Below, piece after piece: positions 1-8,042 of a stretch of DNA of 8,042 nucleotides. The stretch is from positions 1 through 8,042 of the IMG/VR virus record IMGVR_UViG_2693429662_000023; one strand, 5' to 3'. A program made the translations under genes and the position numbers. Each line of letters begins with the position of its first letter. Within the stretch, counting starts at the first letter, position 1. Under the pieces are notes generated by a model that had not been told where the DNA came from, ran no database searches, and worked only from the letters and a program-made list of their open reading frames with translations. Origin of the DNA: a virus (Duplodnaviria; Heunggongvirae; Uroviricota; Caudoviricetes).

Positions 1-1242
1 ATGGCGAGAAAAACACACCCATTAACCACAGTGCAGATCAAAGCAGCCAGACCAGCGCAAAAGGAGTACACCCTGCAGGACGGCGGAGGGCTTTTTCTCC
101 TGGTCAAACCGTCTGGATCAAAACTCTGGAGATTTTCCTACTACCGACCATCGGACAAAAAAAGAATATTGCTGAGTTTTGGATCGCTTGAAGATGTTTC
201 CCTGGCTGATGTCAGAAAACGCCGTAGCGAGTACAGGACGTTAATCAGTGCCGGAACTGACCCGCAGGACCACGAGAGGCAAAAAAGAGAGACAGAGGCC
301 CGAAGACAAGGGAACACGTTCGAAAATGTGGCGGCGGCATGGTACCAGGTGAAAATCAGCCAGAATCTGGCCCCCAACACGATTAAAGACATCTGGCGTT
401 CGCTGGATAAATATGTATTCCCGTTCATCGGCAACACGCCAATAGATACCCTCACCGCCCGAAGGTTCGTTGAAGTGCTTACCCCCATCAAGGAGCGCGG
501 CAACCTGGAAACACTCAAGCGGGTTTTACAGCGCGTTAATGAGGTAATGGATTACGCCGCCAACAGTGGGCTGATTGATGCCAATCCGGCTATGAATGTG
601 CGTAAGGCGTTTCCCTCACCTGTAAAAAAACATATGCCAACAATCCGCCCCGAACAGCTGCCGGAGCTTATGCAGGCTTTATCAGTATCGGCAACAGAAC
701 GGCAGACCAGATTACTGATTGAATGGCAGTTACTGACCGTAACCCGTCCCGCCGAAGCGTCATCAACGCGGTGGGATGAAATCAACCTGGACGCGAAGCA
801 ATGGACGATACCTGCCGGACGTATGAAGATGCGCAGGGATCACGTTATCCCGCTTTCCGGTCAGGCTATGGCGGTGCTGGAGGCCATGAAACCAATCAGC
901 CACCACCGCAATTACGTTTTCCCAAGTCTGAAAGACCCACAGCAGCCGATGAACAGCCAGACAGCTAACGCAGCATTGCGGCGTATGGGATTCGCTGGCG
1001 TGCTGGTGTCTCATGGATTACGCGCCATATTCAGCACAGCAGCGAACGAGGAAGGATTCGAGCCGGACGTAATAGAGGCGGCACTTGCCCACGTCGACAC
1101 CAACGAAGTTAGACGGGCATACAACCGGAGCAACTACATAGAAAAACGCATCGTGCTGATGCGCTGGTGGGGCGAATTTGTCGAGGCTGCGGCGACGGGC
1201 GTAACCCTCGCCAGTGGTAAAAGGGGTATCCGAGCCGTGTAG
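1..1242 (+). CDS. int: Tyrosine site-specific integrase (P4-type phage integrase family)
   Basis: 413-aa ORF starting at nt 1 with ATG. C-terminal region carries SHGLRAIF (His-x-x-Arg) and RAYNRSNY (candidate catalytic Tyr) with spacing typical of tyrosine recombinases, plus a basic N-terminal arm-like region. Followed by an AlpA gene, as in P4-like satellites and PICIs. The att site and any tRNA would lie upstream of the window. Confidence 0.9.
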   Translation: MARKTHPLTTVQIKAARPAQKEYTLQDGGGLFLLVKPSGSKLWRFSYYRPSDKKRILLSFGSLEDVSLADVRKRRSEYRTLISAGTDPQDHERQKRETEARRQGNTFENVAAAWYQVKISQNLAPNTIKDIWRSLDKYVFPFIGNTPIDTLTARRFVEVLTPIKERGNLETLKRVLQRVNEVMDYAANSGLIDANPAMNVRKAFPSPVKKHMPTIRPEQLPELMQALSVSATERQTRLLIEWQLLTVTRPAEASSTRWDEINLDAKQWTIPAGRMKMRRDHVIPLSGQAMAVLEAMKPISHHRNYVFPSLKDPQQPMNSQTANAALRRMGFAGVLVSHGLRAIFSTAANEEGFEPDVIEAALAHVDTNEVRRAYNRSNYIEKRIVLMRWWGEFVEAAATGVTLASGKRGIRAV

Positions 1243-1289
1243 CTGTACAGAAAACCAGTAAAAACTACGAAAACCATGTAAAACCGTCG

Positions 1290-1295
1290 TATAAT
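1290..1295 (+). promoter_or_regulatory. Candidate sigma70 -10 hexamer (TATAAT) upstream of small ORF; no good -35
   Basis: Perfect TATAAT at 1290-1295 in the AT-rich int-alpA intergenic region. The -35 region is weak (gaaaac-like). Confidence 0.25.
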
Positions 1296-1319
1296 TGCAT
1301 CAAATTTAACGACAAGGCT

Positions 1320-1571
1320 GTGAAACATGAAACCGTTAAGATGCAAAAAAATATCAGATGCAATTGCGACGGGCTGCAACTGGCCCTGATGGTTCAGCAT
1401 GAATTTTGGTCAACCTACGATCCAGAGGACAGAACGACGGCCCCATCAAAAAAACAGGTAGTAGACTTTCTGGTATCCCGTGGCGCTTCCAGAAATCTGG
1501 CGGTAAGTATTGATAAGGTCGTACGTCCGGCATCTATGAAGATCGGAGGCAGGCCCAAAAAATGGCGGTAA
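1320..1571 (+). CDS. Hypothetical small protein (83 aa from GTG 1320; alternative starts ATG 1341 or ATG 1399)
   Basis: ORF ends at TAA 1569-1571, 10 nt before a strong intrinsic terminator. Basic C-terminus (KIGGRPKKWR) resembles an AT-hook. No convincing Shine-Dalgarno for any of the starts, so a non-coding transcript is also possible. Confidence 0.3.
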   Translation: MKHETVKMQKNIRCNCDGLQLALMVQHEFWSTYDPEDRTTAPSKKQVVDFLVSRGASRNLAVSIDKVVRPASMKIGGRPKKWR

Positions 1572-1581
1572 CAATCCTAGA

Positions 1582-1605
1582 AGCGGCAGAAATGCCGCTT
1601 TTTTT
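1582..1605 (+). terminator. Rho-independent terminator
   Basis: Stem AGCGGCA (1582-1588), loop GAAA, stem TGCCGCT (1593-1599), then T-run 1599-1605. Confidence 0.7.
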
Positions 1606-1720
1606 ATAATTCCATTTCAAATCATCAATATAAAAAACGGTGTATACCGTTTAAAAACGGTGGGAACTGTTTTTACCCATATCCGATGATTTACCGTATT
1701 TGTCACCGGAATACACCGGA
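1605..1720 (+). promoter_or_regulatory. alpA upstream control region with -10 like hexamer and operator-like repeats
   Basis: TATAAT at 1605-1610. Direct repeat AAAAACGGTG at 1633-1642 and 1653-1662. Near-palindrome CGGTGTATACCG at 1638-1649. Direct repeat CACCGGA at 1704-1710 and 1714-1720, which is an inverted relative of the GGTGTAT motif. Confidence 0.4.
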
Positions 1721-1738
1721 TTCACAAGGTAAATCACG

Positions 1739-1945
1739 ATGGAAGCAATCAGAAAAATTATCTTTCGCCAGGAAGTAAAAAAAATTATCCACATCAAGGC
1801 AGACAGCACGCTGCAAAGCATGATCAACGCCGGAGAATTTCCGCAAGGTTTTCGCGTTGGTTTACGCCGTCGCGGATGGTATGAGGATGATGTGTTGGCC
1901 TGGCAGAAAGAACGCGAACAGGAAGCACGCGGAACGGCTGCTTAA
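1739..1945 (+). CDS. alpA: AlpA-family transcriptional regulator (prophage CP4-57-type, excisionase-like HTH)
   Basis: 68-aa ORF with SD-like AAGGT 9 nt upstream. Sequence IIFRQEVKKIIHIKADSTLQSMINAGEFPQGFRVGLRRRGWYEDDVLAWQ matches the AlpA pattern (LR..EV...S.ST.Y.LI..G.FP.P..LG.R.VGW...EV..W). Its position directly after a P4-type integrase is typical. Confidence 0.85.
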   Translation: MEAIRKIIFRQEVKKIIHIKADSTLQSMINAGEFPQGFRVGLRRRGWYEDDVLAWQKEREQEARGTAA

Positions 1946-1971
1946 CGGGTATCACAGATATGACAAACACG

Positions 1972-2004
1972 AAAAAAGCGGCCCCGATATGGAGCCGCCT
2001 TTCT
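1972..2004. terminator. Candidate bidirectional terminator hairpin
   Basis: Stem GCGGC (1978-1982) pairs with GCCGC (1994-1998). It is flanked by A6 (1972-1977), which reads as T6 on the minus strand, and by CTTTCT (1999-2004) on the plus strand. Stronger as a terminator for the minus-strand transcript. Confidence 0.4.
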
Positions 2005-2093
2005 GAACAATTAACCCGCTGCGCCTTATGTGTATGTGATCCCAAACATAAGCACGGGGATGATAGCCGCTATCAGGCTGGTGGGCAATGCAA

Positions 2094-2270
2094 TCAGTCT
2101 GGTTCAGTTCGTTGCCATAACTGCGAAGCTCTCTCCTTTGATGAGTATTCTTTAAGGTACTTCTCAAGGGCAAAAGAACACGGCGCGAATCGTTCTGATT
2201 CATGCTCTTTCTTTCTGCGTCGTCTTTTTCGTGCAGGTGATGTTTTTTTGGTTGATTCTTCGTTGGTCAT
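2094..2270 (-). CDS. Hypothetical small basic protein (58 aa), in-frame continuation downstream of the RHH gene
   Basis: Minus-strand ATG at 2270 to TGA at 2096-2094, just under the 60-aa cutoff of the ORF track. Translation by hand: MTNEESTKKTSPARKRRRRKKEHESERFAPCSFALEKYLKEYSSKERASQLWQRTEPD. It is in the same frame as the RHH gene, separated by one TAA and 57 nt of open frame. SD is weak (AGG). Confidence 0.3.
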   Translation of the reverse strand: MTNEESTKKTSPARKRRRRKKEHESERFAPCSFALEKYLKEYSSKERASQLWQRTEPD

Positions 2271-2327
2271 TGTGTGCGCCTGTAAAGCAATGCGCCGTAG
2301 TACCTCACACCACGGCGCTGGTGATGG

Positions 2328-2507
2328 TTACTCCTGCTCTTTGGCCTTGCGGCGCTGGCGGCGTTTGATTTCGCCTTTAACGGCAGTAACTATAAATTGC
2401 GCTTTGCTTTCACCTTCATCTAAATTTTTTTCTAAGTCTGCAACAACATCATGCGGGAATCTGGCATTTAACTGTTGCGACTTATTATTTGTTGAACCTG
2501 TTGCCAT
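2328..2507 (-). CDS. Ribbon-helix-helix (Arc/CopG-like) DNA-binding protein, 59 aa
   Basis: Start chosen at ATG 2507 with GAGGA 7 nt upstream (minus strand). Product MATGSTNNKSQQLNARFPHDVVADLEKNLDEGESKAQFIVTAVKGEIKRRQRRKAKEQE has a beta-strand/helix/helix pattern typical of RHH repressors and antitoxins, then a basic tail. The 114-aa ORF in the track is an unsupported 5' extension. Confidence 0.6.
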   Translation of the reverse strand: MATGSTNNKSQQLNARFPHDVVADLEKNLDEGESKAQFIVTAVKGEIKRRQRRKAKEQE

Positions 2508-2528
2508 TACTGAATCCTCTCTAAGTTG

Positions 2529-2661
2529 GTGCGATTCAGTATACACAAAAAAATTCAGAGAAAAAGGCTTGAAGTGCGATTCACTTGCTGATAGGTTAAA
2601 AACAGATGGTGCGATGCACCAAATAACAACGCCCCGCAGTGCGGGAACACATACGGGGCGT
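2529..2661. promoter_or_regulatory. Divergent control region with three GTGCGAT(T/G)CA repeats and nested palindromes
   Basis: GTGCGATTCA at 2529-2538 and 2574-2583, GTGCGATGCA at 2609-2618. Two copies are palindromic: AAGTGcgatTCACTT (2572-2586) and GGTGCgatGCACC (2608-2620). Palindrome CCCGCAgTGCGGG at 2633-2645 is nested within ACGCCCCG/CGGGGCGT arms (2629-2661). Confidence 0.4.
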
Positions 2662-2690
2662 CTAACCAACAACGTAAACTAGGAGCCGTT

Positions 2691-2888
2691 ATGGTTGCCG
2701 TAAATCATATACCACACCTTGTACACACACAAACGGCCTTTGTGTGGCGTTTTCTGGCCCTGAGTGCCGGAGAATCTCAAATCATCCACGTAACCGCCTG
2801 GACGGAACGCGAAGCGCGTAGCCGTTGCCCGTCCGGTTGTGTTGCTGTATTCGCCGCCCGTATTCGTCAGGGGGGGGGCCATGCCTGA
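2691..2888 (+). CDS. Hypothetical protein (65 aa), possibly the N-terminal part of a frameshift-split gene
   Basis: ATG 2691 preceded by AGGAG (2681-2685) with a 5-nt spacer. Ends ...RIRQGGGHA at TGA 2886-2888, immediately after a G9 tract, and overlaps the next start (ATGCCTGA). Confidence 0.4.
   Translation: MVAVNHIPHLVHTQTAFVWRFLALSAGESQIIHVTAWTEREARSRCPSGCVAVFAARIRQGGGHA
2870..2878. repeat. G9 homopolymer tract at an ORF junction
   Basis: Nine consecutive G at 2870-2878, read directly from the sequence, in the context CAGGGGGGGGGCC. Confidence 0.95.
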
Positions 2889-3201
2889 TATGTCAAATTA
2901 CCAGTACCTGATTAATCCGCATTTTAACTGTGAGCATGATATTGCTAAAAAGGTTTATTCCGCTGCGGATGGGGCTACTGACAATATATCAATGGCTGTT
3001 GCGTCAATTGGTAGCCTGATGTGGCATGCGTCAGAAAATGAGGACTATGACGAAAAGGCCATGCGCATTGATATGGGTAATATTGGTTTGTTACTGGCAA
3101 TGCTTGGACATTTTGATATTTCGTTACGGTGCACCATTGAAAATGCCACAGATGCATTAAATGCTATAAAGAAAGCGAATACTGATTCAAATCGGGGATA
3201 A
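2881..3201 (+). CDS. Hypothetical acidic protein (106 aa)
   Basis: ATG 2881 directly after the G9 tract (alternative ATG 2890). Product MPDMSNYQYLINPHFNCEHD... has no motif I recognise. Sits in an operon-like arrangement with the flanking ORFs. Confidence 0.5.
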   Translation: MPDMSNYQYLINPHFNCEHDIAKKVYSAADGATDNISMAVASIGSLMWHASENEDYDEKAMRIDMGNIGLLLAMLGHFDISLRCTIENATDALNAIKKANTDSNRG

Positions 3202-3207
3202 ATAATC

Positions 3208-3507
3208 ATGAGAACATATTTATCTGGCTTGACTGCCAGCGGTTATGCACACCCCCAAATTATCCCCGGCGCTATTTATCTGGATAAGAACGGTAACAGA
3301 GTAACGGTAAAAGAACTGATGTTTGACCGTGTGTATTTTATTCGTGATGGCTATTCATTTCATAGTTCGCTGAACGTGGAGATCTTTATTAGCAGATTCA
3401 GGCGGGAAATCCCGCTTTCCAGAAAAAACCATGTGTCACGTGTGAATGTGGATAAAAAACTACAGGAACTGAAAAACATGATTGCCGCGTGGAGAGAGCA
3501 GAAATGA
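3208..3507 (+). CDS. Hypothetical basic protein (99 aa)
   Basis: ATG 3208 with GGGGA 9 nt upstream. Stop TGA 3505-3507 overlaps the primase ATG 3504 (ATGA overlap), suggesting translational coupling. Confidence 0.55.
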   Translation: MRTYLSGLTASGYAHPQIIPGAIYLDKNGNRVTVKELMFDRVYFIRDGYSFHSSLNVEIFISRFRREIPLSRKNHVSRVNVDKKLQELKNMIAAWREQK

Positions 3508-5321
3508 AAAAAGCGCCAAATTTAAAACACCAGCCGCGTGACAAAATGACGGAAGTCATCATTTTTGCGGGTAGTGATGCGTGGGCACATGCGAAGCAGT
3601 GGCAGGAACAGGACGGGCGACTGGCTGGCGATAACGTGCCTCCTGTCTGGCTTGGAGAGCAACAACTTGCCGAACTGGACAACCTGCAAATCGTACCGGA
3701 CGGACGCTATCGCGTGCGTCTCTATCAGGCGGGGTTATTGCGTCCGGGGCTTGTTAATACCATCGGGCAGAAACTGGCAGCGGCAGGTGTCAGGGATGCT
3801 GATTATTACTCTGAAGGAATGCACAGCCAGAAACGGGAGAACTGGCGCGAATATCTGGAACGTGAACGGGCAGAGCTGGCGGAAAAGAAAAAGGTAGTTG
3901 AACTGCCTGTAAAGAAAAAAGAGCGGGTAAAAGACGATAACGCTTCATCACTGGCGCTTAACCAGATGGGAGCAAGTCAACGCGGCGAAGTTCTCCTGGC
4001 ACATTATGGCGGTGAACTGGCGATTCATGCTGACTCTGACACTGTTCACCATTACAACGGCGTTGTATGGGAGCCAGTACAGGATAAAGAATTACAGCGA
4101 GCTATGGCACAGATTTTCATTGATGCGGAGATCAGCTATTCGCAGAACGCCATTAAATCGGCGGTCGATACCATGAAGTTAAGTTTGCCTGTAATGGGGA
4201 ATACAGCCCGTAACCTGATTGGATTCAGTAACGGGGTATTTGATACCAGAACAGGTAATTTTCGGGAGCATAACAAAAACGACTGGTTGTTAATTGCCAG
4301 TGAATTACCTTTCAGCCCACCAGCAGAGGGGGAAACGCTGGCAACACATGCGCCGAATTTCTGGAAGTGGTTACGCCGTTCGGTGGCTGAGAATGACCGC
4401 AAGGCGGATCGCGTACTGGCTGCATTATTCATGGTGCTGGCGAACCGGTACGACTGGCAGTTATTCATTGAGGTAACAGGTCCAGGGGGAAGTGGTAAAA
4501 GCGTGATGGCGGAGATTTGCACCATGCTGGCGGGTAAGGCCAACACAGTATCGGCAAGCATGAAGGCGCTGGAAGATGCAAGGGAACGCGCGTTAGTGGT
4601 TGGCTTTTCGCTGATTATCATGCCGGATATGACCCGCTACGCTGGTGATGGGGCAGGAATTAAGGCCATTACAGGCGGTGACAAGGTGGCAATTGATCCG
4701 AAACACAAAGCCCCCTACTCAACGCGTATTCCGGCAGTAGTGCTGGCGGTTAACAATAACGCCATGTCATTCAGTGACCGCAGCGGGGGGATCTCACGTC
4801 GTCGGGTGATATTCAATTTTTCGGAAGTTGTACCGGAGAACGAACGCGATCCAATGCTGGCGGAAAAAATAGAAGGTGAGCTGGCGGTAGTGATTCGCCA
4901 TCTGCTTACACGGTTTGCTGACCAGGACGAAGCCAGACGCCTGTTATATGAGCAGCAGAAATCTGAAGAAGCACTGGCGATAAAGCGAGAGGGGGATTCG
5001 CTGGTGGACTTCTGCGGCTATCTCATGGCGTCGGTAATGTGTGATGGCCTGTTAGTGGGTAATGCTGAAATTGTGCCATTCAGCCCACGCAGGTATCTCT
5101 ATCATGCCTATCTGGCTTATATGAGGGCACATGGGTTTGGTAAACCTGTAACACTGACGCGCTTCGGTAAAGATATGCCGGGGGCAATGGCGGAATATGG
5201 CAGGGAGTATATGAAACGGAAAACGAAGCACGGTTTGCGTTCAAACGTGACACTGACGGAGGAATCAGAAGACTGGATGCCATCATGTGTATCGGTCACT
5301 AATGACGATAGCAAAAATTAA
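3504..5321 (+). CDS. Replication protein: D5_N/primase-C-terminal-like domain fused to SF3 helicase (P4 alpha-like pri-rep)
   Basis: Start ATG 3504 with GGAGAG 7 nt upstream (the track's GTG 3489 is an alternative). Walker A motif GPGGSGKS encoded near 4480-4503. Upstream segment ...GFSNGVFDTRTGNFREH... resembles the D5_N region of P4-family primase/helicases. An iteron origin lies immediately downstream. Confidence 0.9.
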   Translation: MKKAPNLKHQPRDKMTEVIIFAGSDAWAHAKQWQEQDGRLAGDNVPPVWLGEQQLAELDNLQIVPDGRYRVRLYQAGLLRPGLVNTIGQKLAAAGVRDADYYSEGMHSQKRENWREYLERERAELAEKKKVVELPVKKKERVKDDNASSLALNQMGASQRGEVLLAHYGGELAIHADSDTVHHYNGVVWEPVQDKELQRAMAQIFIDAEISYSQNAIKSAVDTMKLSLPVMGNTARNLIGFSNGVFDTRTGNFREHNKNDWLLIASELPFSPPAEGETLATHAPNFWKWLRRSVAENDRKADRVLAALFMVLANRYDWQLFIEVTGPGGSGKSVMAEICTMLAGKANTVSASMKALEDARERALVVGFSLIIMPDMTRYAGDGAGIKAITGGDKVAIDPKHKAPYSTRIPAVVLAVNNNAMSFSDRSGGISRRRVIFNFSEVVPENERDPMLAEKIEGELAVVIRHLLTRFADQDEARRLLYEQQKSEEALAIKREGDSLVDFCGYLMASVMCDGLLVGNAEIVPFSPRRYLYHAYLAYMRAHGFGKPVTLTRFGKDMPGAMAEYGREYMKRKTKHGLRSNVTLTEESEDWMPSCVSVTNDDSKN

Positions 5322-5334
5322 ACTTATGGAATAA

Positions 5335-5563
5335 CTGTTCACCACTGTTCACCCTGTTATAAATATCTTTTATATCAGTATATTATAGGGTGAACAGTTA
5401 TTTATGAACTGTTCACCAAACTATTCACTGTTCACCTTTTTGATTGTTTATTGAGCTTCAAGGGTGAACAGTGGTGAACAGTTGGTGAATAGTTTTTGTG
5501 AAACTGTTCACCCCTTAACATTATGAATTAAAAGATAAAATATCAAAAGGTGAACAGGTGAAG
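5335..5563. repeat. Iteron-type replication origin
   Basis: Nine perfect copies of CTGTTCACC or its complement GGTGAACAG: 5335-5343, 5345-5353, 5389-5397, 5409-5417, 5428-5436, 5463-5471, 5473-5481, 5504-5512, 5549-5557. Degenerate copies include CTGTTAT (5354-5360), CTATTCAC (5421-5428) and GGTGAATAG (5484-5492). AT-rich spacers at 5358-5388 and 5515-5548 could be unwinding elements. Confidence 0.8.
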
Positions 5564-5654
5564 GGTTAAAACGCAAAAATTTTAATTTACTGCTGTGAGA
5601 TAAAGCCTATGACAGCGAAGCACATAAAAAAAATCACAATCGCACGCCCTTGAT

Positions 5655-5849
5655 TTGACGGAACACTGGTTAAGGGTGTCGATAAAAATCATCGACCGCA
5701 ACGCCGGGGAAGGATATGCGAAAGCACATCCCGAACTGATTAGCGCATTCATGACCACGACGGCGGCAAACTTTGCCACGCTGACAGAACGGGAGATTGC
5801 CGAAGCGGAACAGGTAACAACCATCAACGTTAAAAGCGCTGGAGAATAA
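5655..5849 (+). CDS. Hypothetical small ORF (64 aa from TTG; internal ATG at 5751) or non-coding transcript
   Basis: ORF ends TAA 5847-5849, 19 nt before a strong terminator. No usable SD for any in-frame start, so coding status is doubtful. Confidence 0.25.
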   Translation: MTEHWLRVSIKIIDRNAGEGYAKAHPELISAFMTTTAANFATLTEREIAEAEQVTTINVKSAGE

Positions 5850-5867
5850 CCGAAGTAGTGAACACAT

Positions 5868-5891
5868 AGCCGGAGCAATCCGGCTTTTTTT
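5868..5891 (+). terminator. Rho-independent terminator
   Basis: Stem AGCCGGA (5868-5874), loop GCAA, stem TCCGGCT (5879-5885), then T7 run 5885-5891. Confidence 0.7.
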
Positions 5892-5925
5892 CGATCTCGC
5901 ATATCTTAAAAAATGGTTGATTGAT

Positions 5926-5931
5926 TATAAT
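5926..5931 (+). promoter_or_regulatory. Candidate -10 hexamer (TATAAT) for the downstream two-gene operon
   Basis: Perfect TATAAT at 5926-5931 within TTGATTGATTATAAT, about 50 nt upstream of GTG 5980. The -35 is weak. Confidence 0.3.
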
Positions 5932-5979
5932 CTATCGAAAATACTGATTATTAGATGATAAGCATCAGGAGGAAACAAA

Positions 5980-6174
5980 GTGGAACAGATAAAGCAAAGC
6001 GCTACCGTGATGATTGATCACGAGATCCTAAACGAGCTTAAAAAACTTCAATTCGATGTTATTCGCCGGATGAATGAAGCTGGTATATACGGCAGAGCCG
6101 CCACGCCAACAGTAGGCCATCTTGCTCGCGTGCTGTTACGCGAACGCCTGGGCATTGCAACAGGTGAGGAATAA
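5980..6174 (+). CDS. Small putative DNA-binding protein (64 aa; RHH-like or HTH-like)
   Basis: GTG start with AGGAGG (5966-5971) 8 nt upstream. Product MEQIKQSATVMIDHEILNELKKLQFDVIRRMNEAGIYGRAATPTVGHLARVLLRERLGIATGEE has a strand-helix-helix pattern. The fold assignment is tentative. Confidence 0.55.
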   Translation: MEQIKQSATVMIDHEILNELKKLQFDVIRRMNEAGIYGRAATPTVGHLARVLLRERLGIATGEE

Positions 6175-6176
6175 CA

Positions 6177-6338
6177 ATGGCTATCACAGAACGCGAGGCA
6201 AGCATCATTAAAGCCATTGGCGAGGAAACAAGAGACACGATAGCGCCATTAATGGAAAAGATCGCAGAGCTTGAGAGACGAATAAACAAGCTGAGTGATG
6301 AAGTTGAAGGCCTGATCTCGTTACTCGGTGAGCAATGA
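6177..6338 (+). CDS. Small charged coiled-coil protein (53 aa)
   Basis: Not in the ORF track because it is under 60 aa. ATG 6177 sits 2 nt after the upstream stop, with GAGGA (6166-6170) 6 nt upstream. Translated by hand: MAITEREASIIKAIGEETRDTIAPLMEKIAELERRINKLSDEVEGLISLLGEQ, with a heptad-like hydrophobic pattern. Confidence 0.5.
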   Translation: MAITEREASIIKAIGEETRDTIAPLMEKIAELERRINKLSDEVEGLISLLGEQ

Positions 6339-6400
6339 CAGGGGGGGGGAGTGTTCCGGCCGGAAAGTCGATCGCCCTGGACACCGCCCCCCGTCTCATT
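6339..6400. promoter_or_regulatory. GC-rich palindromic element containing a second G9 tract
   Basis: G9 at 6341-6349 in the same CAGGGGGGGGG context as the tract at 2870. Perfect palindrome TTCCGGCCGGAA at 6354-6365 and CGATCG at 6369-6374. Arm GGGGGGGAGTGT is near-complementary to ACACCGCCCCCC (6381-6392). No T-run follows, so it is not a canonical intrinsic terminator. Confidence 0.4.
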
Positions 6401-6422
6401 CGTAGAAAATTTTGCTTTTCAA

Positions 6423-6445
6423 AAAAGTTACACGAAAAGTTACAC
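6423..6445 (+). repeat. Tandem direct repeat AAAAGTTACAC x2 (12-bp period) upstream of terS
   Basis: AAAAGTTACAC at 6423-6433 and 6435-6445, about 25 nt upstream of the terS ATG. Confidence 0.6.
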
Positions 6446-6467
6446 CCCCTCAAAACGAGGTTTTTGC

Positions 6468-6956
6468 ATGGCATTAACGACCAAAAAAAAGCGGTTTGCT
6501 GATGCGTTATCAAGGGGCGCAAATCCCACGGAAGCCGCTATACATGCGGGATACAGCGAAAAGACCGCAAGGGTCAAAGGCTGGCAGCTATCCAACGATC
6601 CTGAGGTGAAAAAGTATCTTAAGGCTGTAACTCCTGATGTAACTTTTCAGGTTACAAAACCGAAAAAAGTTACAAAGAAAGTTACCGAAAAAGTTACACC
6701 GGAACGGGCATCAATTAACACCATTGAGATGATGGATAACGGCCTACCCGACCCCATCAAAGCAATGGGCAGGATACTGATTGACAACATGGACACAGAT
6801 CCAAAACTGGCTTTAGATGCCGCGTTTAAGCTGGCCCAGTTCACCCACCGCAAGATCGGCAGCATTGGGAAAAAAGAGGTTAAAAAACTCAATGCCGCTA
6901 GTGTCTACTCAAATCGGTTCCCCATCCCTAAGCCACCAACAGACTTAAAACACTGA
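6468..6956 (+). CDS. terS: Terminase small subunit (P27/Terminase_2-like, N-terminal HTH)
   Basis: Start ATG 6468 chosen over the track's GTG 6351, which would translate the GC-rich palindrome. N-terminus MALTTKKKRFADALSRGANPTEAAIHAGYSEKTARVKGWQL matches the TerS HTH pattern (K.KRF...Y...N.T.AA..AGYS.KTA). Contains a KVTKKVTEKVT repeat insert. Confidence 0.75.
   Translation: MALTTKKKRFADALSRGANPTEAAIHAGYSEKTARVKGWQLSNDPEVKKYLKAVTPDVTFQVTKPKKVTKKVTEKVTPERASINTIEMMDNGLPDPIKAMGRILIDNMDTDPKLALDAAFKLAQFTHRKIGSIGKKEVKKLNAASVYSNRFPIPKPPTDLKH
6627..6697. repeat. 12-bp periodic GTAAC/GTTAC repeat array inside terS (candidate pac or TerS-binding site)
   Basis: GTAAC at 6627 and 6639. GTTAC at 6651, 6669, 6681 and 6693, with spacings of 12, 12, 18, 12 and 12 bp. 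Same core as the upstream AAAAGTTACAC repeats. Confidence 0.5.
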
Positions 6957-6967
6957 GGTAGCGAACT

Positions 6968-7129
6968 ATGAGCGAATACATCACAGACCCTATTGATGTA
7001 CTCACGGAAATCATGAACGACAAGCAGCAGTCGACCGAAATACGGTTACAGGCCGCCGCTGTTCTGATGCCATATTTTCACGAAACACTAAACCCGTGCT
7101 TCCAGGAGGAGGAAGAAGATGATCTGTAA
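6968..7129 (+). CDS. Small protein (53 aa) resembling the C-terminal segment of TerS, with acidic tail
   Basis: ATG 6968 with GAGG 9 nt upstream. Translated by hand: MSEYITDPIDVLTEIMNDKQQSTEIRLQAAAVLMPYFHETLNPCFQEEEEDDL. Aligns by eye with TerS residues DPIKAMGRILIDNMDTDPKLALDAAFKLAQFTH (shared DPI...I..D.......AA.....F.H). Overlaps the capsid gene start by 11 nt. Confidence 0.45.
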   Translation: MSEYITDPIDVLTEIMNDKQQSTEIRLQAAAVLMPYFHETLNPCFQEEEEDDL

Positions 7130-8042
7130 AAACATGAAAGGCGTGTCAGCAGTTCGCGCCGCCAGCGTGCTGGCATCGTGTAAATTTAGCCATGCTGACG
7201 CTATAGAGATGACGAAAAGAAATGATCCGGCAGTATCGTTATTTCTTGAAAAATCCGTAGTAGCAGGAATGAACACGGATAACATGCCGTCGCTGGTGGC
7301 AGAGCCGATAGTAAGAGAGCTTGGCGAGTATATTTTTTCGCAGTCTGTACCAGGCAAGCTAATCAGCAGCGCGCTAAATCTTCCTTTTGGCGCAAAATTG
7401 CAGTCAATATCAGGCAAGGGCAGTAAATGGCTTAAAGAAGCCGAAGAAATCCCTGTCAAAGAGGGAGAAGTAAACGAAAGTGCGCTAAAACTGTGCAAAC
7501 TTGGCGCTATTGTGATGCTGAATAACGAGCTAATCAAATTTAGCACCCCTGGTACAAATTCAGCGATCAGAGACTTGATCACATCGGAATCGGTGAAAGA
7601 AATAGATAAAAAATTTCTTTCCAGTGACCAGGAGGTGGCTGGCGTATCCCCTGAGGGCGTGCTTAATGGTGCTGATGAGGCCGAAAACTTCATAGAGCTT
7701 TTCAAAAAGCACATAGCGAACGGTAACACGCTTTCCACGTCGTCGCTAATCTTGCCCGTAGAAAACGCCTTACAGCTTACTGATGCTGAGTTCTGGCAGA
7801 TAGAGCTTTTGAGAATACCGGTAATTGTGAGCGAACAGGCGGATCGCATGATGCTGATAGACGCTCAAAAGCTGATTATTAACGTTGAAGCCACGGTTAT
7901 AACCCCAACTGATGAGGCGGTAATAAAAACCGAATCAGGGGCGGTTAGCCTTTTCCAGAATGACGCTACAGCGTTCAGGGCAATCACCTATTGCGGATGG
8001 CAAAAACTCGATAAGGCCGTCACCGTTCTGGCGAAAAGCTGA
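7119..8042 (+). CDS. Major capsid protein, HK97 fold (Phage_capsid family), 307 aa
   Basis: ATG 7119 preceded by AGGAGGAGGAAG. Internal motif EIDKKFLSSDQEVAGVSPEGVLNGA and C-terminal LFQNDATAFRAITYCGWQKLDKAVTVL match hallmark HK97-family capsid motifs (..ID.aFl.GdG...P.GlLN.. and ..F..D.tAfRa..R.......AfvvL). Stop TGA at 8040-8042 coincides with the window end. Confidence 0.7.
   Translation: MICKNMKGVSAVRAASVLASCKFSHADAIEMTKRNDPAVSLFLEKSVVAGMNTDNMPSLVAEPIVRELGEYIFSQSVPGKLISSALNLPFGAKLQSISGKGSKWLKEAEEIPVKEGEVNESALKLCKLGAIVMLNNELIKFSTPGTNSAIRDLITSESVKEIDKKFLSSDQEVAGVSPEGVLNGADEAENFIELFKKHIANGNTLSTSSLILPVENALQLTDAEFWQIELLRIPVIVSEQADRMMLIDAQKLIINVEATVITPTDEAVIKTESGAVSLFQNDATAFRAITYCGWQKLDKAVTVLAKS

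Follow-up and report, generated by a model that had tools for sequence, protein, structure and literature searches.

The window considered here is the whole 8,042-nucleotide stretch of IMG/VR record IMGVR_UViG_2693429662_000023 (positions 1 to 8,042), an 8-kb phage satellite of Escherichia coli that belongs to the phage-inducible chromosomal island (PICI) type. In its right-hand part, directly behind a transcription terminator, lie two very small genes, the first encoding a 64-aa protein with a predicted ribbon-helix-helix (RHH) fold and the second a 53-aa protein predicted to form a leucine zipper. Across the related satellites compared, the late zone is led constantly by the RHH gene, irrespective of cos type and of what comes next; the zipper gene, second in order, is optional and was seen nowhere but behind an RHH gene. 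This report describes the pair, its relatives and its genomic setting, and offers hypotheses on what the two proteins might do for the island and for the phages that it appears to exploit.

The gene pair and its expression signals

The features of the region are as follows.

5868-5891, plus strand: intrinsic terminator called by a terminator scan (stem AGCCGGA/TCCGGCT and T-run), closing the gene at 5604-5849 and marking the start of the late-zone unit
5919-5936: imperfect 18-bp palindrome with halves GATTGATTA and TAATCTATC, overlapping the -10-like TATAAT at 5926-5931; candidate promoter/operator
5967-5972, plus strand: Shine-Dalgarno sequence AGGAGG, 7 nt before the GTG, read from the sequence
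5980-6174, plus strand: gene for the 64-aa protein of predicted RHH type, first gene of the late zone, GTG start
6163-6170, plus strand: Shine-Dalgarno sequence GGTGAGGA (GAGG core), inside the end of the first gene and 7 nt before the ATG, read from the sequence
6177-6338, plus strand: gene for the 53-aa acidic protein, predicted to be a single-helix leucine zipper, ATG start; an open reading frame (ORF) that is also a coding sequence in the annotation by PGAP

An original prediction, made from the DNA letters without database searches, had described two tiny ORFs of 64 and 53 codons separated by 2 nt, each with its own ribosome-binding site; the coordinates, the spacer ('CA') and both sites (AGGAGG and GGTGAGGA, each 7 nt before its start codon) are confirmed. 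The layout, with GGTGAGGA inside the first gene, suggests that the two genes are translationally coupled. Both ORFs are real genes, as is evident from the clustering of variation at third codon positions, the ratio of non-synonymous to synonymous change (dN/dS), the annotation and the recurrence of both in diverged satellite lineages. Among 15 haplotypes, variable sites at first, second and third codon positions number 8/1/20 in the 64-aa ORF and 2/1/4 in the 53-aa ORF; dN/dS is about 0.12 for the former, and the estimate for the latter is based on 3-5 substitutions. PGAP calls a coding sequence for each, and both are retained in other satellites at 36-55% protein identity, the 64-aa ORF falling to 19% in the most distant lineage. 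Synonymous divergence among the E. coli haplotypes is 0.5 in the RHH gene versus 0.06-0.09 in the zipper gene, which implies that a recombination boundary lies at their junction or close to it.

Since the terminator at 5868-5891 stands before the pair and no other plus-strand terminator was called between 5892 and 7200, a single transcription unit running from the RHH gene into the packaging and capsid genes is plausible. The promoter is less clear. The pair had been placed behind a perfect -10 hexamer, and TATAAT is indeed found at 5926-5931; however, a sigma-70 consensus scan of 5300-7200 called no promoter, the hexamer lacks an acceptable -35 element or TGn extension, and it reads GATAAT in the 92%-identity haplotype (L012/L013), an identity class that accounts for 164 of the 220 genomes in which the region occurs (see below). 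Positions 5919, 5923 and 5926 of the overlapping palindrome also vary among E. coli haplotypes.

Predicted structures of the two proteins

For the 64-aa protein, AlphaFold2 run on a six-sequence alignment returned a model with a mean predicted local distance difference test (pLDDT) score of 83.6, in which an extended N-terminal segment is followed by helices at residues 14-33 and 45-57. This is the strand-helix-helix topology of the RHH (MetJ/Arc) superfamily, and the protein is accordingly predicted to have an RHH fold and not a helix-turn-helix (HTH) or winged-helix fold. Of the earlier description of an RHH/HTH-like DNA-binding protein, the RHH half, itself a DNA-binding type of fold, is thus the part that the model upholds, and the HTH half is not. 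The extended C-terminal tail with which RHH antitoxins would bind a toxin is absent.

For the 64-aa protein, there was no match in Pfam, NCBIfam or PADLOC, no significant one in PHROG, none in a sequence search of the PDB with the RHH family, nothing significant when the model was compared by Foldseek with the PDB and BFVD, and no tblastn match (E up to 1) in 50,697 phage records. Word-indexed searches yielded relatives in E. coli only, at 89% identity or more, and two scans of genome contigs yielded none. An exhaustive HMMER (phmmer) search of 1.8 billion representative proteins did recover genuine distant homologues, namely P0007, P0009 and P0010, which are 38-47% identical over the matched stretch; matches to P0006, P0008 and P0011 were dismissed as repetitive false matches. 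A profile search then added P0040, P0041 and P0042.

The coiled-coil assignment of the 53-aa protein was borne out. AlphaFold2 models it as one continuous 47-residue helix (residues 5-51, pLDDT 94.5), and the sequence reads as a 4-3-4-3 hydrophobic spacing formed by L25, I29, L32, I36, L39, V43, L46 and L50. One long helix with such spacing is the mark of a parallel leucine zipper, which the product is predicted to be. The family profile matches GCN4 zipper chains in the PDB (E 0.004-0.1), i.e. generic coiled coils, and the net charge, counted from the sequence, is about -5. Homologues are encoded by L014, L017, L037, L038, L040 and L044. Their conserved ends read MA(I/L)(T/S)ER(D/E)xS (N-terminal) and (E/D)V(E/S)GLISLLGE (C-terminal), on either side of a variable middle that is in some cases four residues longer (53 or 57 aa). 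No significant match was obtained in Pfam, NCBIfam, PADLOC or PHROG, and tblastn against the same 50,697 phage records gave chance-level matches only (best E 0.4). Many NCBI and UniRef records name this protein "antitermination protein NusG". That identity has no support here, because NusG would be expected to comprise NGN and KOW domains over about 180 aa and the present protein has 53 aa, a single helix and no NusG, NGN or KOW match in Pfam or NCBIfam; the name appears to be a misannotation that has propagated through the databases.

The RHH gene as leader of the late zone

All homologues of the 64-aa protein recovered by sequence search sit in PICI-like islands or fragments of islands. Contigs that reach upstream of the RHH homologue carry an integrase, AlpA and either a primase or RepA, except for L044, where a MarR-like gene stands in the short left flank instead. 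In the window and in L014, L016, L017, L037, L040 and L043, the first gene to follow the replication gene, with its repeats resembling an origin of replication (ori), is the RHH gene. It lies upstream of a capsid homologue in every relative found, and that of the window occupies the position of first late gene of a Gram-negative PICI. What comes between differs, as follows.

Window, after the RHH gene: zipper gene, cos-like site, terS, TerS-like 53-aa ORF, capsid-like gene
L014, after the RHH gene: zipper gene, full tape-measure gene, cos-like site, capsid-like gene
L017, after the RHH gene: zipper gene, cos-like site, capsid-like gene, tail-assembly gene
L037, L040 and L044, after the RHH gene: zipper gene (14-nt overlap with the RHH gene), cos-like site, capsid-like gene
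L016 and L043, after the RHH gene: portal gene, cos-like site, short terS with 53-aa ORF (L016 only), capsid-like gene; no zipper gene

Because the next genes (zipper, portal, tape measure, TerS or capsid) and the cos type are all variable, the constant association of the RHH gene is with the start of the late unit and with no single function encoded downstream. In the relatives, the zipper gene lies 3-10 nt from the RHH gene or overlaps it by 14-20 nt, and it has an RHH gene upstream wherever upstream sequence existed to check; RHH genes without a zipper gene occur in L016, L043 and the island EcCICFT073.

Several of these late zones also carry whole phage structural genes, including a 798-aa tape-measure gene in L014 (6407-8803), a 421-aa portal gene in L016 (5881-7146) and L043 (6517-7782), and a gene for a lambda-I-type tail-assembly protein in L017 (4038-4622). 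Whole structural genes in satellite late zones fit the capture of late genes from helpers (PMC10111431).

EcCICFT073 extends the comparison to a model island. There, a 68-aa ORF (L039 463-669; CFT073 NC_004431.1 1385462-1385668; WP_000796960.1, PHROG 3255, a family of unknown function) lies between perC and the capsid gene c1499, as the first gene after perC and behind a terminator hairpin of the same sequence as that at 5868-5891 of the window. Compared with the RHH family profile, this ORF gives an hhalign probability of 94% (E 9e-8), and a TTTCAT..TGCAAC motif stands upstream of it. P0007, P0009 and P0010 match phrog_3255 weakly (E 0.001-0.02) but over the full length, and the window protein has no match to it at E up to 1. 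On these profile comparisons, the 68-aa ORF and the 64-aa protein are judged to be distantly homologous.

The DNA just upstream of the RHH gene also has features in common among the relatives. A footprint of the form TTTCAT-N4-5-TGCAAyG is found there in four non-E. coli lineages as well as EcCICFT073, and TTGCAA-type copies are spaced exactly 21 bp apart in L014, L017 and L037/L040. Within L040, such copies cluster before the RHH gene and are absent from the alpA promoters; more generally, late promoters and alpA promoters were found to have no motif in common. TTGAT is enriched upstream of the RHH gene across five lineages, with 11 copies versus 1.7 expected and none of 5000 shuffles reaching that number, for a motif that was picked post hoc.

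The cos-like element, terS and the capsid-like gene

Downstream of the pair, the window continues with the following features.

6341-6413, plus strand: cos-like core consisting of a G-run, CGATCGCCCTGGACACCGCCCCCCGTCTCA and then AGAAAATTTT, starting 3 nt past the zipper stop codon
6423-6445, plus strand: two tandem copies of AAAAGTTACAC, 12 nt apart, between the core and terS
6468-6956, plus strand: small terminase subunit (TerS), matching Pfam Terminase_2 and phrog_641 and 45% identical to TerS of phage 1717
6968-7129, plus strand: second 53-aa ORF, resembling an internal TerS segment (phrog_641 positions 89-125, E 3.5e-7)
7119-8042, plus strand: capsid-like protein of the HK97-fold family, 307 aa, last gene of the island, matching Pfam Phage_capsid and phrog_617

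The pair had been described as lying directly upstream of terS. It does head a block that contains terS and a capsid homologue, but a conserved non-coding gap of 129 nt (6339-6467) intervenes, and this gap is better conserved than the proteins on either side. At about 80% identity, its core matches a stretch without annotation in 81 phage records, most of them of Shiga toxin (Stx) phages of the Stx1a, Stx2c and Stx2 kinds; in Stx2 phage 1717, the matching stretch sits between an HNH endonuclease gene and terS. A three-way alignment supports the core, which recurs in related satellites, including the distant L017. In HK97-type phages that require an HNH protein for cos cleavage, cos lies between the HNH gene and terS. 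This class of HNH-cos phage is treated elsewhere (PMC5052747). From its position, 6341-6413 is probably a cos site common to satellite and helper. The G-run differs in length by a few residues among E. coli haplotypes, runs of 6 and 9 G having been read directly. A hairpin formed by the G-run and a C-run of the core was dropped as a structural element or terminator, its stability being like that of shuffled sequence (z = -1.07).

In the place of the AAAAGTTACAC repeats, phage 1717, L017, L037 and L043 carry several GTTAAC repeats; no terS was called in L017 or L037. The AAAAGTTACAC copies may therefore be candidate cosB-type sites for the island's own TerS, with a changed cosB specificity. One possibility for the second 53-aa ORF, which has a homologue in L016 at the same place ahead of the capsid-like gene, is that its product serves the large terminase as a decoy or adaptor. 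Identity between the capsid-like protein and the capsid part of the protease-capsid fusions of Stx1a/PPompW-type prophages is 24%, and the N-terminal parts of those fusions are missing from it. Capsid-like genes of 314-320 aa lie downstream of the cos-like site in every satellite relative from the sequence search; in EcCICFT073, the capsid gene is larger and comes directly after the RHH homologue. Given that the cos-like site, TerS and the capsid homologue all match Stx1a/Stx2c-type prophages, lambdoid phages of that type or their close relatives are the likely helpers.

The island and its distribution

The remainder of the window, as read from the ORF list and family scans, has the order integrase, AlpA, DUF4222, D5-type primase and small genes, followed by terS and the capsid-family gene.

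1-1242: integrase
1739-1945: AlpA-type regulator
3208-3507: DUF4222 protein
3489-5321: D5-type primase
5604-5849: 81-aa gene called by PGAP, the last before the terminator; the ORF list shows only a 64-aa version from 5655

This follows the four-zone layout of Gram-negative PICIs, i.e. the integration, Bro, replication and late zones; among such islands, the capsid gene is the commonest captured late gene (PMC10111431). The product of 5604-5849 matches phrog_1231, a family of unknown function (E 3e-40). Right behind the primase gene, a long inverted-repeat or iteron-like structure extends from 5337 to 5565 and is probably the replication origin of the island; an Rfam scan gave only spurious matches of the miRNA-precursor type, in this ori region, and in L014, L016, L017 and L037, the replication genes are followed by comparable stretches rich in repeats. 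Upstream of alpA, at about 1633-1663 of the window, are two AAAAACGGTG repeats 21 bp apart, the first of them within the palindrome ACGGTGTATACCGT, which could be a binding site for AlpA or a helper-encoded inducer.

Of 5426 complete E. coli genomes, 220 have the region of the pair, with identities of 91-100% and in every case on the chromosome; the carriers are mostly O157, O55, O111, O26 or O103 strains, i.e. mostly enterohaemorrhagic E. coli (EHEC). In strain FDAARGOS_946, the island is located between tRNA-Pro (beside yejM) and yejO, with the capsid-like gene as its end. A published paper on the O157 prophage pool yielded nothing about the island. In O111 strain 11128, a RepA-type helicase replaces the primase and the right-hand block is unchanged, from which it follows that the block moves as a module.

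A possible regulator of the late zone

To our knowledge, how the late zone of a Gram-negative PICI is switched on has not been established. The only promoter that AlpA is known to activate is its own (PMC6092414). The reading preferred here, tentatively and with chances that we would put somewhat below even, is that the RHH protein regulates transcription of the late zone with the zipper protein as its cofactor. It is favoured because of two things taken together, namely the constant place of the RHH gene at the head of the late unit and the habit of small RHH proteins encoded first in their operons, among them CopG, Arc, omega and ParD, which are typically autorepressors. Further points in its favour are the plausible single transcription unit, the upstream footprint and TTGCAA-type copies of the relatives, and the GCN4-like predicted helix of the zipper, whose gene lies so close to, or overlaps, an RHH gene. 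In the scheme proposed, two small genes coupled in translation would follow the terminator and open the late zone, which is devoted to packaging and capsid redirection. The 64-aa protein would dimerise and bind DNA as a promoter-proximal regulator, probably an autorepressor, of a late-zone transcript that would extend past the cos-like site to terS and the capsid homologue. As an accessory subunit, the 53-aa zipper would oligomerise the RHH protein or modulate it. Mnt and TraM each have an RHH domain joined to a coiled coil for oligomerisation, and the zipper might supply in trans what their C-terminal coiled-coil domains supply in cis. A dedicated pair of late-gene regulators had been suggested from the outset; the place of the RHH gene, first in the late zone of the relatives, fits that suggestion, but the pair is not obligate.

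A number of observations weigh against the proposal. The RHH-zipper recombination boundary and the RHH-only islands indicate that the zipper is dispensable for RHH function. The E. coli protein, as read from its sequence, has zero net charge, which is unusual for a protein that reads DNA, and its strand positions are T, M and D where other RHH proteins hold DNA-contacting residues, an atypical arrangement. The curated Pfam RHH models (RHH_1, CopG, Arc etc.) match neither the window protein nor any of seven family members at E up to 10. As regards the DNA, the palindromes 5' of the RHH gene are each individually at chance level, and no operator was identified; in the DNA upstream of its RHH gene, the window lacks both TTGCAA and the TTTCAT/TGCAA footprint; TTGAT is missing from the 92%-identity E. 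coli haplotype (L012); and L016 and L043, with their near-identical RHH proteins, share no motif of at least 9 nt in promoter-proximal DNA except the terminator.

Alternative roles

That last comparison bears equally on a role at cos, since L016 and L043 do share the cos core. By this account, the RHH protein would bind beside cos and, with the zipper, recruit or redirect the helper terminase or HNH protein, or else block cleavage of the helper cos, somewhat in the way that TraY and TraM, which are RHH proteins, make oriT ready for the relaxase. The zipper stop codon falls a few nucleotides before the G-run in the window (3 nt), L017, L037, L038, L040 and L044, the HNH endonuclease gene of phage 1717 holds the equivalent position beside cos, and the cos core, common to Stx1a/Stx2c-type phages, is the most conserved DNA across the elements. 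There is precedent in Rpp, a DNA-binding coiled-coil protein of a satellite that redirects cos packaging (PMC6739421). Adjacency to cos is, however, inconstant, with a tape-measure gene before cos in L014 and a portal gene after the RHH gene in L016 and L043. Furthermore, the EcCICFT073 homologue immediately precedes the capsid gene, within an island with lambda-type cos sites and a separate Rpp about 2 kb downstream, and when post-ori genes of EcCICFT073 were expressed singly, only c1503 (rppA) blocked lambda, among genes whose number is not confirmed to have included the 68-aa ORF (PMC6739421). A packaging accessory of this kind is on balance unlikely. The more specific version, in which a complex of the RHH and zipper proteins acts at the cos shared with Stx1a/Stx2c phages, e.g. 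by replacing or antagonising the helper HNH endonuclease, must be considered a long shot; if true, Stx-converting phages in EHEC would have their packaging, and hence their yield, controlled by the island through a mechanism that differs from those of Rpp, Ppi and TerS replacement.

A second alternative shifts attention to the zipper, which would be a scaffold-like or portal-interacting factor for satellite-sized capsids, the RHH protein being only its regulator. The parallels would be CpmB of the Staphylococcus aureus pathogenicity islands (SaPIs), a small helical dimer that acts as an alternative internal scaffold, or ORF10 beside Ccm in SaPIbov5 (PMC5052747). The zipper always co-occurs with the capsid-like gene of about 315 aa, which is shorter than the protease-scaffold-capsid fusion of the helper (a 1971-nt gene), and the minimal late zones of L037, L040 and L044 contain little more than the RHH, zipper and capsid-like genes. 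It is missing exactly where the satellite has a portal gene of its own (L016 and L043), but these two represent one lineage, so the mutual exclusion of portal and zipper amounts to one event. The invariant ends and variable middle look like a rod with two docking motifs; yet the conserved C-terminus resembles the end of a generic GCN4 zipper and may therefore reflect coiled-coil formation only. PHROG gave weak hits on its 'portal protein' and 'internal head protein' families (E 0.005-0.19), which are at chance level for a coiled coil, and the tblastn search noted above gave the zipper no significant similarity to any phage protein. A capsid-assembly cofactor is decidedly unlikely.

Interference with the helper, which had also been raised by the original prediction, is very improbable. 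Either the RHH protein would repress a helper promoter, as CapR of the satellite PLE does on the capsid gene of ICP1, or the zipper would sequester a helper regulator. The family is satellite-specific, as the lack of any match to the 64-aa protein in the phage records attests, the fold is predicted to be of a DNA-binding type, and genes for interference are commonly located after ori in satellites (PMC6739421). No candidate target emerged, however, and for a conserved position at the start of the late unit of the satellite itself, self-regulation is the simpler explanation; the single-gene experiments in which only rppA blocked lambda, whether or not they took in the homologue, also tell against it (PMC6739421).

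The antitoxin-like module that had been offered as a further possibility, here an RHH antitoxin followed by a small toxin, can be set aside as scarcely credible, for the product of the second gene is predicted to be one acidic helix of 47 residues and belongs to no toxin family in Pfam, NCBIfam or PADLOC, the RHH protein is without the toxin-binding tail, and an RHH gene standing alone in L016, L043 and EcCICFT073 does not accord with obligate pairing. Separately, a frameshift fusion of the two ORFs is unlikely, given that the frame offset between the genes, as read from coordinates, differs among lineages.

Comparison with known systems

Taken by itself, the pair consists of ordinary-looking small proteins, the RHH member of which is linked to PHROG 3255 and the EcCICFT073 ORF. 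In architecture, it recalls P22 Mnt and F-like TraM, where an RHH domain and a C-terminal coiled coil are found in one chain; here, there are two polypeptides, the zipper is optional and neither known protein has sequence similarity to the window pair. The autorepressors CopG, Arc and omega resemble the window arrangement in that a small RHH protein is encoded first in its unit, behind a terminator and a promoter-like region, but the window protein differs in having no Pfam RHH match, no identified operator and atypical strand residues.

Rpp of EcCICFT073 is like the proposed pair in combining a DNA-binding domain with a dimerising coiled coil, and it acts at cos (PMC6739421). It is, however, one chain of 144-153 aa with a winged helix that mimics lambda TerS, is encoded downstream of the capsid and decoration genes and has no homology to the pair. 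Membership of the Rpp family is therefore rejected, the fold being predicted as RHH and not winged helix, the chains being two and the island position being different; Rpp was likewise dropped as a positional analogue, rppA coming after the capsid and decoration genes.

The operon I-like region of SaPIbov5 offers a likeness at the level of the whole late zone, with a phage cos site, a shortened HK97-fold capsid homologue (Ccm) and small obscure genes, and the window capsid-like protein resembles Ccm, the capsid-size redirector of that island (PMC5052747). The helpers of SaPIbov5 belong to a class with an HNH endonuclease beside the terminase, as do those suggested for the window. The two differ in that SaPIbov5 has a Gram-positive host, has no sequence relationship to the window and retains only a terS remnant, versus the full TerS here. 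Since Stx phages or their close relatives are indicated as helpers, genes of the present island could affect Stx-phage production in EHEC.

Unlike the window, EcCICFT073 is without a zipper gene; its capsid homologue is of the lambda-E type and its cos sites are of the lambda type (PMC6739421). The two islands are alike in that the PHROG 3255 ORF, judged to be homologous to the window protein, also stands at the head of the late zone behind the same terminator hairpin. The RHH late-zone leader, including that of EcCICFT073, presents a tangible and readily testable candidate for the switch of the late zone in Gram-negative PICIs.

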